Source of the DNA: an uncultured Eubacterium sp.
GTDB lineage: Bacteria > Bacillota > Clostridia > Lachnospirales > Lachnospiraceae
DNA: 64,000 nt
Assembly (NCBI GenBank): GCA_964484225.1
Contig: CAZAEM010000006.1
Location: 9,579-73,578, forward strand
Reading direction: 5' to 3'
Below, in pieces: positions 31,640-43,758 of this stretch. How positions within the stretch are numbered: position 1 is the first letter of the stretch; every line of letters begins with the position of its first letter. The position numbers and the translations under genes were made by a program. The notes under the pieces were generated by a model. It was given only the letters and a program-made list of their open reading frames with translations, did not search any database and was not told the DNA's origin.

Positions 31640-32659
31640 CTATAGCAATATAGAGCGCAGATACTCCACCAGTTCCGTGTTCTCCTCCTCCGTCCTGACC
31701 GCCAGGCGGATGTACTGTCCTTTTCCAATCTTACGGCTCAAATCTTTGATGAAAAAATCTTTCTCCAGCAGCCGGACCGCCAGCTCTCTGCCGGTCATAC
31801 CGCCGGACAGTCCGCACATGATATAGTTGGCCTGGGATCTGTATACTTTCAGGCAGGGAATCGCCTCCAGCTCCCTCTCCATCTTTTGCCTGGCCTGTCG
31901 CACCTTTTTCAGGGAAATATGGTAATCCCCCTTGTACTTCTCATATATCTGCATAAAAAACTCGCCGACAGAGTTGATATTCCAGATAGCCACGTCCTCT
32001 TTCAATGCCCGTATCATATCCTCGTCACTGCTGGCAAGAATGCCCAGGCGCAATCCCGGTATCCCGTATGATTTGGAAATAGACTTTACCACATACAATT
32101 TTTCGTATGAGATGAGGATCTCTTCCCTCAGGACAGAGTTTTCTTCCGGAGAGCCATCGCTGTCCACAAAATCTATGAAACTCTCATTCAGTATAAGGGC
32201 AAGATCCTGCTCCCTTGCCCAGGCGATCAGGCGCAGGACACCCTCCCTGTCCATATAGTTGCCGGAAGGATTATCCGGGTTGATGACCACGAGAGCGTCA
32301 ATCTCCCTGCCCTGAAAATTGTGGATGACCTCATCAGCACCGTAGCAGAAATCCGGCGCCGTATCATAAACCGCCGCCTCCCGGCAAAACCGGTTGGGAT
32401 ATTCCTCAAAGGTAGGTCGGATAAAGCCCATCCTCCGAAAATCTGTTCTCTCCATCAAAGCCTTAATCAGCTCGGCAGCACCGTTTCCCACCACAATGTG
32501 TTCACGGGACACGCCAAAATTTTTCGCCGCCAGAAGACTGTTCACCTCCATGCCGGATGGATACTGCGTGATCAGTGATGAGATGTTGGCATTGATCTCA
32601 TCCAGCATCTTCCGGGGAGGAAAATAGAGATTCTGCAATATCCAGATCCTGGATATCAT
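31640..32659 (-). CDS. Class I/II-fold PLP-dependent enzyme (HisC/CobD-like aminotransferase or decarboxylase)
   Basis: NLYFPP (NPxGPP-like), VVGNGAAELI, VINPDNPSG, and the PLP-lysine motif KSISKSYGIPGLRLG are present. The start is uncertain. ATG 32659 overlaps the upstream gene by 62 nt, and ATG 32608 would overlap by 11 nt but removes the NLYFPP strand. Confidence 0.75.
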   Translation of the reverse strand: MISRIWILQNLYFPPRKMLDEINANISSLITQYPSGMEVNSLLAAKNFGVSREHIVVGNGAAELIKALMERTDFRRMGFIRPTFEEYPNRFCREAAVYDTAPDFCYGADEVIHNFQGREIDALVVINPDNPSGNYMDREGVLRLIAWAREQDLALILNESFIDFVDSDGSPEENSVLREEILISYEKLYVVKSISKSYGIPGLRLGILASSDEDMIRALKEDVAIWNINSVGEFFMQIYEKYKGDYHISLKKVRQARQKMERELEAIPCLKVYRSQANYIMCGLSGGMTGRELAVRLLEKDFFIKDLSRKIGKGQYIRLAVRTEEENTELVEYLRSILL

Positions 32660-33350
32660 CAATCTCGTACCACAGTTTTCCCTCCAGCCGCCTGGCTTGG
32701 ATCTCCTTTGTCTCCAGCATGGCAATCAGTTTGATCACGGATTCGTAGTATTCGTTGTTCCCCATGGCCTTCGCATAGGCCCTCAGAAAAGGCAGGTAGG
32801 TGTTTTCTGAAAAATGCCGGCTGAATTTGTAGATATTTACTGTCTTATAGTACTTGTCCTTCTCCTCGAAATTCAGATATCTGCCGGGTATGAAATCTAT
32901 GATGCAGTCATTTTCATCCAGCACCGTACAGGTGCCGTCCATCCAGTTCTCAAATTTGTCCACCAGGGCCAGCGTATCCCTGGGATCCCGCAGCAGATCA
33001 TCGATGACAGACGCCTCAAACACCAGGTCGGATTCCAGAAGAAGGGTATCTTCCCTGCACAGATACTCCCCGGCCAGGGCGAGGGAGTATATATTGTTCG
33101 TCCTGTCATAAACATTGTTCTCGATAAAGACAATAGGTGTCCGGATATTCAGCGTCCCGATATAATCCCGCAGTTTCTGTCCACAATAACCGGTGATGAT
33201 AACAATCCTGGACAGATCCCTGTCATCCAGAATAAGTAACATCCTGTGAATGATCGTAACACCGTTCACCTCCACCATACACTTCGTGCGATCCGCTGTC
33301 AAGTTCTTCAATCTCTTACCCATTCCCGCTGCCAGAATCACTGCCTGCAT
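32598..33350 (-). CDS. LicC-like sugar/alcohol-phosphate nucleotidyl(cytidylyl)transferase
   Basis: MQAVILAAGMGKRL...RTKCMVEVNG is the NTP-transferase P-loop. The length of about 250 aa is LicC-like. I set the start at ATG 33350, 7 nt after GGAGGAAAAGG. Confidence 0.8.
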   Translation of the reverse strand: MQAVILAAGMGKRLKNLTADRTKCMVEVNGVTIIHRMLLILDDRDLSRIVIITGYCGQKLRDYIGTLNIRTPIVFIENNVYDRTNNIYSLALAGEYLCREDTLLLESDLVFEASVIDDLLRDPRDTLALVDKFENWMDGTCTVLDENDCIIDFIPGRYLNFEEKDKYYKTVNIYKFSRHFSENTYLPFLRAYAKAMGNNEYYESVIKLIAMLETKEIQARRLEGKLWYEIDDIQDLDIAESLFSSPEDAG

Positions 33351-33585
33351 ACCTTTTCCTCCGTCCGTTTTACAAAATAACAATCAAATTGTAAGCCTCG
33401 TCATAATCTTTGATCAGGGATCATCTGTGGGCGAGCAGCTTCTCCTTCTTTTCCAGATCGTGTATCTCGGTGACCACTGCCATTTTTTCTCAAACTCCCT
33501 GACTTGAGTTCTTCCTGTCCAATATACGGGTTGGTAATTGATATTTTACTCATAATCTATCTGTTCCCCCAATAGAAATAGGTTG

Positions 33586-42582: not shown

Positions 42583-42765
42583 TTCACTTCCATCTCCTTT
42601 TTGAATATGTACCTTTGACGACAAATATCCTTTGAATCCCTCTCTGCCATATATCCTCTCCATCTAATATTTCCAAAAATCTCTCTTTGCTCTCCCACAC
42701 CCCTGTATCTCCGGCAGGATCATTATCACCTTCTCTTCCGGCAAAGCACTTTTTTTTCCACCGAG

Positions 42766-43758
42766 TCATAGTCCTTTCCAAACCACTTTAATCCTCCCCG
42801 CCATGTAGTCCTCACAGAAATCCTCTACACTGCTGTTGATTCCCGCACTTTTCAACTCTGACACAAACTTTTCCTCCATCTCTCCGTAATATGGATAATC
42901 ATGAGCAGCCGTCCCGATCACAGGCTTCCGAAAATCTCCATACTTGGCACACAGTATTTCCTCATATCCCCTGGGCACAGCAATCTGCATGTTGTTGAAA
43001 GGCATGTATATCACCTCTTCCCAGCACTCCTTGCTTACAAATTTATTCTTCATCTCGCGCAGCCATATGATCTCCCCCATGCATCTCCCCTCGTCCTCAT
43101 GGAAGAGCGCAGAACAGGCATCCATCATTCGCAATACATGATACCTCTGATTTTCCGTCGGCATCGGTACATCGGTGAATTCCTCAAAATAAGCAAGCTT
43201 ATCCGCCAACTCCCCGGTCTCTTCCAATTCCTCCCAATTACTGACAATACCCACCCCAAGGCTCACAAGACTCTCCTGGGTTCTGTAAAGTTCGGGATCA
43301 TCAGGGATAACATCAAGCGGAAAGATGTCTATGCCCACAAACTCAAAAGGATACCCGTGAAAAGTCTGCAGGTATTCATCCATATCCCACTCATTTCTGA
43401 CGGCGCTTACCCTCAACTGACTACCTTTATGAAGAATCTGATATTTAGGATCTGGCGAATGGATTCCCAATACACGATAGCCTTTGGGGAGTTGTTTCGG
43501 CAGGATTTTCACCAGCTTATCAAACTCCTCTCTCTTTATGCAGATATCTATGTCATCGTCCCAGGGAATGAATCCCTGATGACGAACTGTCCCAAGAAGA
43601 GTGCCCCCGTCTGCATAATACTGAATACCATTCTTCTCACACAACTCTGTCACCAAATTTAAAACTTCCATCTGCGCCGCCCAAGCTCTCTTCATCATCC
43701 GGGAGACGGTAAATCCCTCTATCATCTCTTCCCTGAAAAACTCTTCTGAAAATTTCAT
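42766..43758 (-). CDS. licD: LicD-family phosphotransferase (CDP-alcohol-dependent phospho-substituent transferase)
   Basis: [36 protein letters not shown] is the LicD signature. Confidence 0.8.
   Translation of the reverse strand: [330 protein letters not shown]

Follow-up and report, generated by a model that had tools for sequence, protein, structure and literature searches.

Streptococcus pneumoniae and Haemophilus influenzae possess a Lic pathway in which the kinase LicA, the phosphocholine cytidylyltransferase LicC and the phosphotransferase LicD lead, by way of a phospho-amine activated with cytidine diphosphate (CDP), to a phosphodiester on a glycan, which is teichoic acid or lipooligosaccharide. 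In Treponema denticola, Tde1415 (structures 6pd1 and 6pd2) joins an N-terminal LicC-like domain, PntC, to a C-terminal amine-making domain dependent on pyridoxal phosphate (PLP), a class V aminotransferase for 2-aminoethylphosphonate (AEP). Neisseria PptA, acting on pilin, and Campylobacter jejuni EptC, acting on FlgG, are alkaline phosphatase (AP)-fold enzymes that decorate surface-filament proteins with phosphoethanolamine or phosphocholine, using a Thr nucleophile; they are membrane-anchored, periplasmic and use phospholipid donors. Finally, the Type A flagellin O-glycan of Clostridioides difficile 630 (CD0240–CD0244) carries a phosphodiester-linked amino compound, and in the published model the CD0242 nucleotidyltransferase gives CDP-threonine and CD0244 is the CDP-alcohol phosphotransferase (PMC10714395). 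Here we describe a stretch of 64,000 nucleotides (hereafter, the window; contig CAZAEM010000006.1 of assembly GCA_964484225.1, positions 9,579 to 73,578) from an uncultured Eubacterium sp. of the Lachnospiraceae, in which a LicC-like cytidylyltransferase, a PLP enzyme, a LicD-family transferase and a soluble AP-fold protein are encoded within a flagellin glycosylation island. A first-pass annotation had named these four open reading frames (ORFs), and Pfam or structure matches recovered every one of them.

On balance, we lean towards reading this locus as a Lic/Kennedy-like head-group module whose bifunctional gene is broken in the organism at hand. Two uncharacterised enzyme families, the LicC–CobD fusion and the soluble AP-fold protein, stand behind the module, which departs from known systems in four respects: the origin predicted for the amine (from a fused decarboxylase, with no kinase), a LicD gene in a nonulosonate-type island, the soluble AP-fold partner and the broken state. 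Compared with the Lic pathway, the window has neither the LicA kinase nor the LicB transporter, the phospho-amine of its relatives is predicted to come from the fused PLP decarboxylase, and the predicted target is a cytoplasmic flagellin glycan instead of teichoic acid or lipooligosaccharide. In the C. difficile Type A system, by contrast, a TagF-like transferase takes the place of LicD, the head group, N-methylthreonine, retains its carboxylate, and there is no PLP decarboxylase, AP-fold enzyme or nonulosonate pathway. The first-pass annotation knew of no description of such a combination, and we likewise found no account of it in the literature on LicD, cytidylyltransferase, phosphoethanolamine or AEP with flagellin glycosylation.

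The alignments show the cytidylyltransferase and PLP ORFs to be the two parts of a single gene, which elsewhere encodes a single fused protein of about 600 aa. Homologues of the PLP ORF at 51–60% identity are mostly proteins of 578–594 aa, and those with Pfam data for both parts combine NTP_transferase and Aminotran_1_2 in one polypeptide. When one genome per species was scanned, relatives proved to be encoded in at least 574 stretches; 80 of these loci were fetched, and every one matched residues 1 to ~590 of the fused query in one piece. The overlap between the two ORFs reported by the first-pass annotation does exist and measures 62 nt, but comparison with the fused relatives identifies it as a deletion scar within one gene and not as an ordinary gene overlap. 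The cytidylyltransferase ORF of the window tracks the family until DLDIA-ESLF and then ends, while the PLP frame picks up at (N)LYFPPRKMLDEI; at the junction, identical bases read DLDIAESLF in the former frame and QNLYFPP in the latter. Between DxDIA and NPY every relative has 34–35 residues that are gone from the window gene, namely the linker and the motif RYGGYWRYPxLxDFCYLV, which forms the N-terminal arm of the PLP domain. The simplest history would be an out-of-frame deletion of 101 or 104 nt, for which the junction sequence offers the short repeat CTATTT as possible endpoints. A second assembly carries the identical split ORF. An exact-sequence lookup of the 361-aa stop-to-stop PLP ORF returned no match; its called product (P0001) begins at a TTG at 32638.

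The two halves are in different condition, as judged against 117 fused relatives. In the cytidylyltransferase half, 2 of the 73 columns that are at least 97% conserved differ, and only by V to I and I to V. The PLP half is without at least 10 residues of the N-terminal arm that are kept in 115–117 of the relatives, has Arg at a Gly position kept in 116, and has Asn (AAT, 32186–32188) in LILNESF at an Asp kept in all 117. This Asp aligns with LDEAF of CobD and IDESF of SMUL_1544 and is, we presume, the residue that pairs with the PLP pyridine nitrogen in fold-type I enzymes, where its loss cripples catalysis. The arm of CobD type (GG ... D-F-x-x-x-x-N-P), found as RxGGYWRYPxLxDxCYLV in essentially all relatives, is absent from the window, while the Schiff-base Lys is kept (codon 32072–32074; KSISKSYGIPGLRLG aligns to RSLTKFYAIPGLRLG of CobD). 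Given both the deletion that removed the arm and the change of Asp to Asn, the decarboxylase step is most likely lost, and we consider that the decarboxylase half of the window is probably inactive through recent lesions. The cytidylyltransferase half and the LicD and AP-fold genes look intact. The first-pass annotation had treated the LicC-like, PLP and LicD genes as a working module; as a recurrent module they hold up well across species (see below), but its working state here does not. Such a case illustrates that a prediction from gene content can fail at single-residue resolution.

Among solved structures, the closest relatives of the cytidylyltransferase half are T. denticola PntC (6pd1; 4.5e-17, residues 13–250) and S. 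pneumoniae LicC (1jyk; 1e-12, residues 12–253), and its NTP_transf_3 score is 36.8 bits against a cut-off of 27. The nucleotide-binding signature A-A-G-x-G-x-R-L is present as AVILAAGMGKRL at 33309–33329, and the C-terminal acidic EIDD motif lies in WYEIDDIQD, which aligns to YEIDSVQD of LicC. The motif LLLESDL matches the segment of Tde-PntC that holds Glu104, a residue that contacts the amine (PMC6697681), whereas LicC has Asp at this place. The Glu hints at a small primary amine as substrate of this half, a predicted cytidine triphosphate (CTP)-dependent activator of a phospho- or phosphono-amine.

The likeness to PntC might also be taken to mean that the module installs an aminophosphonate, cytidine monophosphate (CMP)-AEP, in the manner of Tde1415; moreover, other flagellin-type islands with AP-fold and LicD genes carry fusions of a nucleotidyltransferase (NTP) domain to phosphoenolpyruvate (PEP) mutase. 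We nevertheless find this alternative, which the first-pass annotation had left standing, hardly credible. As that annotation had noted, the window is devoid of PEP mutase and phosphonopyruvate decarboxylase, with no PEP_mutase or thiamine pyrophosphate (TPP)-enzyme Pfam match among the ORFs scanned, and only 1 of the 80 loci has a PEP mutase gene less than 10 kb away from the fusion. The fused PLP domain belongs to class I/II and resembles CobD, unlike the class V AEP transaminase of Tde1415, and its predicted product is a phosphate ester and not a phosphonate.

For the PLP domain, the rankings of models and structures point towards decarboxylases. The window ORF matches the CobD threonine-phosphate decarboxylase model of NCBIfam best (167.8 bits), followed by HisC (136.4 bits); intact relatives reach 174–188 bits with CobD (TIGR01140) and up to 149 bits with HisC (TIGR01141), the former standing 25–40 bits above the latter. 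The curated cut-off for CobD is 290.55 bits, and we rejected a bona fide CobD because scores of 168–188 bits miss it. A bona fide HisC was rejected because the scores fall more than 120 bits short of 276.55 bits and because the neighbours are glycosylation genes and not a his operon. Against solved structures, the PLP domain of the intact family gives 162 bits with SMUL_1544 of Sulfurospirillum multivorans (6oux), 106 with CobD 1lc5, 90 with CobD 3fkd and at most 79 with genuine HisC proteins, and the motif IDxCYLxNPY is common to the fusion family and SMUL_1544. The latter is reportedly an L-serine O-phosphate decarboxylase. The entry name of 6oux, 'threonine phosphate decarboxylase-like enzyme', is the annotation of SMUL_1544 (PMC7755780); the title of a paper states that SMUL_1544 governs norcobamide synthesis, and the norcobamide linker is ethanolamine (PMC6759758). 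Similarly, Cj1436 of C. jejuni, which we liken to the fusion by its description and not by sequence comparison, converts phosphoserine to ethanolamine phosphate for capsule decoration (PMC11800397). SMUL_1544, Cj1436 and CobD differ from the fusion in standing alone, with products that go to cobamide loops or to amide-linked capsule decoration and not to a cytidylyltransferase; with respect to SMUL_1544 and CobD, the window copy also lacks the N-terminal arm and the conserved Asp.

Such rankings make phosphoethanolamine our first candidate for the head group of the intact family, at roughly even confidence. Aminopropanol phosphate, that is, (R)-1-aminopropan-2-yl phosphate formed from L-threonine O-3-phosphate in a true CobD-type reaction, would accord with the top rank of the CobD model and with the strong matches to both CobD structures. 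It appears unlikely to us, as SMUL_1544 is clearly the nearer structure, shares the IDxCYLxNPY motif and is tied, by the title mentioned above, to ethanolamine-linked norcobamides, and as kinase genes are not among the recurrent neighbours of the fusion in 75 loci. Threonine phosphate requires a kinase of its own; phosphoserine is a universal intermediate. The PLP domain might also be an aminotransferase, either HisC-like or similar to Cj1437, an enzyme that we take to belong to the same fold class; dihydroxyacetone phosphate would then be turned into serinol phosphate, and the donor would be, for example, CDP-serinol. The HisC scores of 136–149 bits and the formation of serinol phosphate by the PLP-dependent Cj1437 (PMC11800397) speak for this possibility, but decarboxylase models and structures rank above HisC in every comparison, and the missed HisC cut-off and the lack of a his operon count against it as well, so that we hold a transaminase product to be quite improbable.

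The fusion occurs in hundreds of species of gut Lachnospiraceae, Oscillospiraceae, Coriobacteriia and spirochaetes, with hosts that include Ruminococcus, Christensenellaceae, Treponemataceae, Selenomonadaceae, Synergistaceae, Coriobacteriales and Atopobiaceae; NCBIfam has no curated model for it, and the literature searched holds no description. Its neighbours were counted in 75 loci, among genes within four of the fusion. LicD was found in 24 loci and a TagF-like Glyphos_transf gene in 21, with one or the other in 43. A membrane protein of ~890 aa combining YidC and Sulfatase domains was present in 17 loci, 16 of which also have LicD or a TagF-like gene. These proteins (e.g., L070 12941–15598) consist of a YidC-like (60KD_IMP) part and a sulfatase/AP-fold domain and look like the membrane counterpart of the soluble AP-fold partner in flagellin islands. 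Octopine_DH (octopine/nopaline-type dehydrogenase) genes accompany the fusion in 16 loci, OCD/mu-crystallin (ornithine cyclodeaminase) genes in nine and S-adenosylmethionine (SAM) methyltransferase genes in four, often directly downstream of an intact fusion (loci L003–L081; e.g., L006 9834–10913, L003 11821–12786, L060 9219–9986), while the window has none; from these genes one may suspect that many species N-carboxyalkylate or N-methylate the amine head group. Wzx flippases and glycosyltransferases are recurrent neighbours too. Such a pattern fits a CDP-activated phospho-amine, N-modified in some cases, that serves CDP-alcohol phosphotransferases as donor.

The closest syntenic locus is L016 of Lachnoclostridium sp. 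UBA5890, with the order Maf, NeuB, NeuC, CMP synthetase, Maf, AP-fold protein (691 aa), LicD, octopine dehydrogenase, intact fusion (612 aa) and a convergent DUF3880 glycosyltransferase. Flagellin lies beside the fusion in L019 and L034, and together with two LicD genes in L029; L060 has Maf, a methyltransferase, the fusion and three LicD genes, and L046 has two LicD genes and island-type glycosyltransferase genes. The fusion thus serves wall-polysaccharide loci and flagellin islands alike.

The LicD protein of the window belongs to PF04991, with a score above the cut-off of 22.6 bits (Table 1) and a match over profile positions 1–227 of 227. It has no membrane helix, and its acidic D-x-D cluster, WDDDIDI (43543–43563), aligns with WDYDVDL of FKRP. 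Mf1, another member of the LicD family, uses CDP-choline and CDP-ethanolamine (PMC11982090), and by analogy the window LicD is predicted to transfer a phospho-amine from a CDP donor to the glycan. Taken together, the gene set may be read as follows. The island would make CMP-legionaminic acid, and the Maf transferases would attach its sugar to flagellin in the cytoplasm. In an intact fusion, the C-terminal domain of CobD/SMUL_1544 type would decarboxylate a phospho-amino acid, most likely O-phospho-L-serine to phosphoethanolamine and, with less likelihood, L-threonine phosphate to aminopropanol phosphate; the N-terminal domain of LicC/PntC type would then combine the product with CTP into a CDP-amino alcohol, most likely CDP-ethanolamine. 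Soluble LicD would link the phospho-amine through a phosphodiester to one of the sugars of the flagellin glycan, and the AP-fold protein, with its Thr nucleophile, would probably transfer head groups from cytidylyl donors or edit them. Direct decarboxylation of a phospho-amino acid such as phosphoserine would explain the missing kinase, and the 43 loci with LicD or TagF-like genes, set against the single PEP mutase locus, argue for a CDP-amino-alcohol phosphate over a phosphonate. Accordingly, the proposal of the first-pass annotation that a CDP-activated amino-alcohol phosphate is attached to the flagellin glycan is still the best reading of the gene set by comparative genomics. In the window itself, the decoration would be abolished or in the course of being lost, or it would be supplied with phospho-amine from elsewhere. 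Flagellin is a major target of innate immunity. Zwitterionic phospho-amines such as phosphocholine and phosphoethanolamine on bacterial surfaces shape host recognition (PMC11982090).

The first-pass annotation had described the AP-superfamily protein as lacking transmembrane segments and as having Thr at the nucleophile position, and both statements are borne out. No segment is hydrophobic enough for a membrane helix (maximum Kyte–Doolittle value over a 19-residue window, 1.13), and the Thr of FTYPS (codon 41653–41655; T310 in P0121 numbering) stands at the position of the formylglycine Cys of sulfatases (T-Y-P-S-V vs. C-x-P-x-R) and is invariant in 30 aligned homologues. The Sulfatase Pfam score is 62.9 bits against a cut-off of 25. 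The invariant positions in these 30 homologues are D271, E308-x-T310-x-P312-S313, H326, D415-x-H417 and D494-H495-G496, and the fold, the metal ligands D271, D494 and H495 and the nucleophile T310 place the protein in the AP superfamily. The C/S-x-P-x-R motif of S1 formylglycine sulfatases is missing, and with Thr in place of Cys/Ser such an identity is ruled out. The Thr nucleophile agrees with LtaS, EptA and PptA; their N-terminal multi-pass membrane domain is absent. In an AlphaFold2 model (predicted local distance difference test 91.5; predicted template modelling score 0.92), helical repeats (7–116) and a beta-sandwich (140–250) precede the AP fold (264–649). We read the repeats as resembling the tetratricopeptide repeat (TPR), and a relative, P0152, has a TPR_14 Pfam match. 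TPR-containing flagellin glycosyltransferases exist, and by analogy the repeat domain may target flagellin. Foldseek matched S1 sulfatases, phosphonate monoester hydrolases and YejM/PbgA with E ~1e-14, confirming the superfamily without singling out a subfamily, and a sequence search against solved structures gave marginal sulfatase matches only. A word-indexed search found 34 relatives, all of ~650 aa; with a full profile, the search yielded 401 clusters (50% identity) at E ≤ 1e-30, and among the best 150 of these the matches are mostly near full length.

Eleven AP-fold loci were examined: the window, L016 and L082–L090. All of them are glycan-decoration clusters; eight have flagellin, FliD or Maf, while L085, L087 and L090 have glycosyltransferase or CMP-sugar genes only. 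A cytidylyl-donor pathway accompanies the AP-fold gene in ten. This is LicC–CobD in the window and L016; an NTP–PEP mutase fusion with two or three LicD genes in L082 and L083; a TagD-like cytidylyltransferase of 133–135 aa, with no LicD or TagF-like gene, in L085 and L086; TarI/TarJ-type genes (predicted CDP-ribitol) with a TagF-like gene in L087; NTP–CTP–PEP mutase, a TPP enzyme and Fe-ADH in L088; and PEP mutase, a class V aminotransferase, a PntC-like gene and a TagF-like gene in L090. L089 has nucleotidyltransferase (PF00483) genes only, leaving its donor unclear, and L084 has no cytidylyltransferase within 10 kb of the AP-fold gene. The cytidylyltransferase–PEP mutase fusions of these islands (L082/L083 20988–end, L088 5753–7762, L090 7449–8747) are joined by phosphonopyruvate decarboxylase-like genes and aminotransferase or Fe-ADH genes, from which phosphonate-decorated flagellin glycans can be predicted in those organisms. 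A GT1 gene of ~525 aa lies beside the AP-fold gene in the window and in six of the nine islands retrieved by way of AP-fold homologues (L082, L083, L084, L087, L088 and L090), though not in L016; in the window copy, the glycosyltransferase domain occupies only the C-terminal third, and the gene overlaps the stop of the AP-fold gene. Such co-occurrence suggests a functional pair.

From its genomic context and conserved Thr, we infer that the AP-fold protein carries out phosphoryl transfer on head groups as a soluble enzyme, with the Thr as nucleophile. It may well be a transferase that uses cytidylyl donors, a view we hold with a little less than even confidence. It may, with a lower probability, be a hydrolase, either a phosphodiesterase that trims or edits head groups or a nucleotide pyrophosphatase, so that LicD alone would decorate the glycan; hydrolases (S1 sulfatases, phosphonate monoester hydrolases) prevail among its fold neighbours, it has a Pfam Phosphodiest match, and LicD is at hand in the window, L016, L082 and L083. 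Against this, L085, L086 and L088 have a cytidylyltransferase system but no LicD or TagF-like gene within 8–10 kb, which fits a transferase that draws on a cytidylyl donor. Enzymes of the AP superfamily with a Thr nucleophile also include many transferases (LtaS, EptA, PptA). From PptA and EptC, the window protein differs in having no membrane helix, in its helical repeats and beta-sandwich and in its linkage to cytidylyl-donor genes.

It is tempting to go further and suppose both that the LicC–CobD fusion is a kinase-independent bacterial route to CDP-ethanolamine (or CDP-aminopropanol) for wall polysaccharides and flagellin glycans, and that the AP-fold protein represents a new class of cytoplasmic phospho(no)transferases. 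The latter would pass head groups (ethanolamine phosphate, glycerol phosphate, ribitol phosphate, AEP or hydroxyethylphosphonate) from CDP or CMP donors, via phospho-Thr, onto flagellin or its glycan, as a cytosolic counterpart of LtaS, EptA and PptA that works with nucleotide donors. As a joint proposition this is tentative, and we would sooner expect one of its parts to fail. If CDP-ethanolamine is indeed made from phosphoserine, glycan decoration without a kinase or an imported amine would be explained. The AP-fold family connects the glycosylation of flagellin with at least four different cytidylyl-donor pathways and would constitute a new class of enzymes for phosphodiester modification of protein glycans.

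Several points weigh against the picture of a broken Lic/Kennedy-like module. The acceptor, legionaminic acid or another sugar, and the exact head group are predicted from the gene set. The reaction type of the PLP domain is read from model ranking, since neither the CobD nor the HisC cut-off is reached, and the sequence is compatible with phosphoserine and threonine phosphate alike. The role of the AP-fold protein is deduced from its context and the conserved Thr, and the pyridine-pairing role of the lost Asp from homology and general knowledge of the fold. Both assemblies that carry the split may stem from the same reads. Finally, the PLP half still has an open frame of 332–339 codons and could be expressed, given a plausible ribosome-binding site (AGGA) 8 nt ahead of the TTG start, and it has diverged as the cytidylyltransferase half predicts (identity difference 0.125 against a family mean of 0.128, z = -0.1). 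Hence, either the lesions arose recently or selection still acts on the truncated protein; an old pseudogene was dropped as an explanation because the PLP half, measured in this way against the cytidylyltransferase half, gave no sign of global decay.

These last observations would also suit a benign split, in which the enzyme has become two polypeptides and the truncated PLP protein retains its activity, supplying the phospho-amine with which the glycan is decorated. A stand-alone relative of 355 aa (P0002) exists, and the intact LicD and AP-fold genes are in keeping with such a split. The loss of the nearly invariant arm, the Asn at the Asp assigned to PLP pairing and the lack of any split among the 80 fetched loci make this scenario rather improbable in our view, and we retain the broken module as the preferred reading.

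The island spans 23 kb on the minus strand (~30–55 kb of the window) and combines flagellin, three MptE-like (Maf) proteins and a complete legionaminic acid set (Table 1). In line with the nonulosonate operon of the first-pass annotation, the LegB, LegC, NeuC, NeuB and NeuD models score above their cut-offs, and a CMP synthetase is present. We read the nucleotidyltransferase with CBS domains as a PtmE-like supplier of the legionaminic acid pathway. The island has three DUF3880/Glyco_trans_1_2 paralogues, one of them closing it convergently; a minus-strand ORF (30133–31278, 381 aa) was rejected as a gene, being a shadow of this plus-strand paralogue with odd composition and no family match. DUF8042 genes recur in other flagellin glycosylation islands (L082 1302–1577; L084 5668–6030). 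A promoter and terminator scan of 31–34.8 kb gave background level only.

Table 1. Genes and features of the flagellin glycosylation island, in window coordinates.
Feature	Position	Strand	Evidence
DUF3880/Glyco_trans_1_2 paralogue	53710-54924		
Flagellin, 267 aa, presumed glycosylation target	52789-53592	-	Flagellin_N 5.8e-44, Flagellin_C 5.5e-28
Maf-type (MptE-like) flagellin nonulosonate transferase, paralogue 3	50604-52181	-	MptE-like 1.5e-29
Maf-type transferase, paralogue 2	48884-50557	-	MptE-like 3.3e-26
CMP-nonulosonate synthetase	48124-48921	-	CTP_transf_3 1.2e-08; PseF model 75 bits, under cut-off
LegC-family aminotransferase	46900-48111	-	TIGR04181 445.4 bits (cut-off 420)
192-aa protein without family match, helical and TPR-like by sequence look	46291-46869	-	
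CBS and sugar-1-phosphate nucleotidyltransferase	44945-46051	-	NTP_transferase 7.2e-33, CBS
DUF3880 and Glyco_trans_1_2 glycosyltransferase-like protein	43776-44981	-	Pfam scan
LicD-family phosphotransferase, 330 aa, soluble	42766-43758	-	Pfam LicD 2.6e-35, 123 bits
AP-fold protein, soluble, 676 aa (gene call P0121 begins 42582)	40633-42663	-	Sulfatase 4.1e-17, Phosphodiest 1.7e-08
GT1 glycosyltransferase, 525 aa	39066-40643	-	Glyco_trans_1_4, Glycos_transf_1
NeuD/PglD-type N-acetyltransferase	38467-39078	-	TIGR03570 196.2 bits (cut-off 160.8)
Nonulosonate synthase, NeuB/LegI type	37442-38470	-	TIGR03569 510.2 bits (cut-off 399.65)
Hydrolysing 2-epimerase, NeuC/LegG type	36258-37445	-	TIGR03568 474.9 bits (cut-off 235.9)
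Maf-type transferase, paralogue 1	34690-36267	-	MptE-like 1.8e-33
LegB NAD-dependent 4,6-dehydratase	33586-34578	-	TIGR04180 515.5 bits (cut-off 475)
LicC/PntC-like cytidylyltransferase, N-terminal half of the broken bifunctional gene	32598-33350	-	NTP_transf_3 5.6e-09, NTP_transferase 2e-07
Deletion junction	32615-32648	-	Read in both cytidylyltransferase and PLP frames
CobD/SMUL_1544-like PLP domain, C-terminal half of the broken gene	31640-32659	-	Aminotran_1_2 6e-21
DUF8042-like ORF, 76 aa, last minus-strand gene of the cluster	31337-31567	-	Gene call, faint Pfam match
Convergent DUF3880 and Glyco_trans_1_2 gene closing the island	30040-31221	+	Orthologue adjoins the fusion in L016

Beyond the end of the island, a helix-turn-helix protein and an M78 (ImmA/IrrE-like) peptidase form a pair (28759–29846, minus strand); after them come genes for a hemolysin-III-like protein, an enoyl reductase and SbcCD. 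A further group of genes (2140–5453, minus strand), which has no relation to the flagellar island, concerns the regulation of capsule or exopolysaccharide and encodes a CpsB/CapC phosphatase, a LytR-CpsA-Psr protein, a Wzz chain-length determinant and a tyrosine-kinase-like ATPase. On the same strand, a single ORF of 649 aa (10542–12491) encodes an ammonium transporter fused to a P-II regulatory domain.

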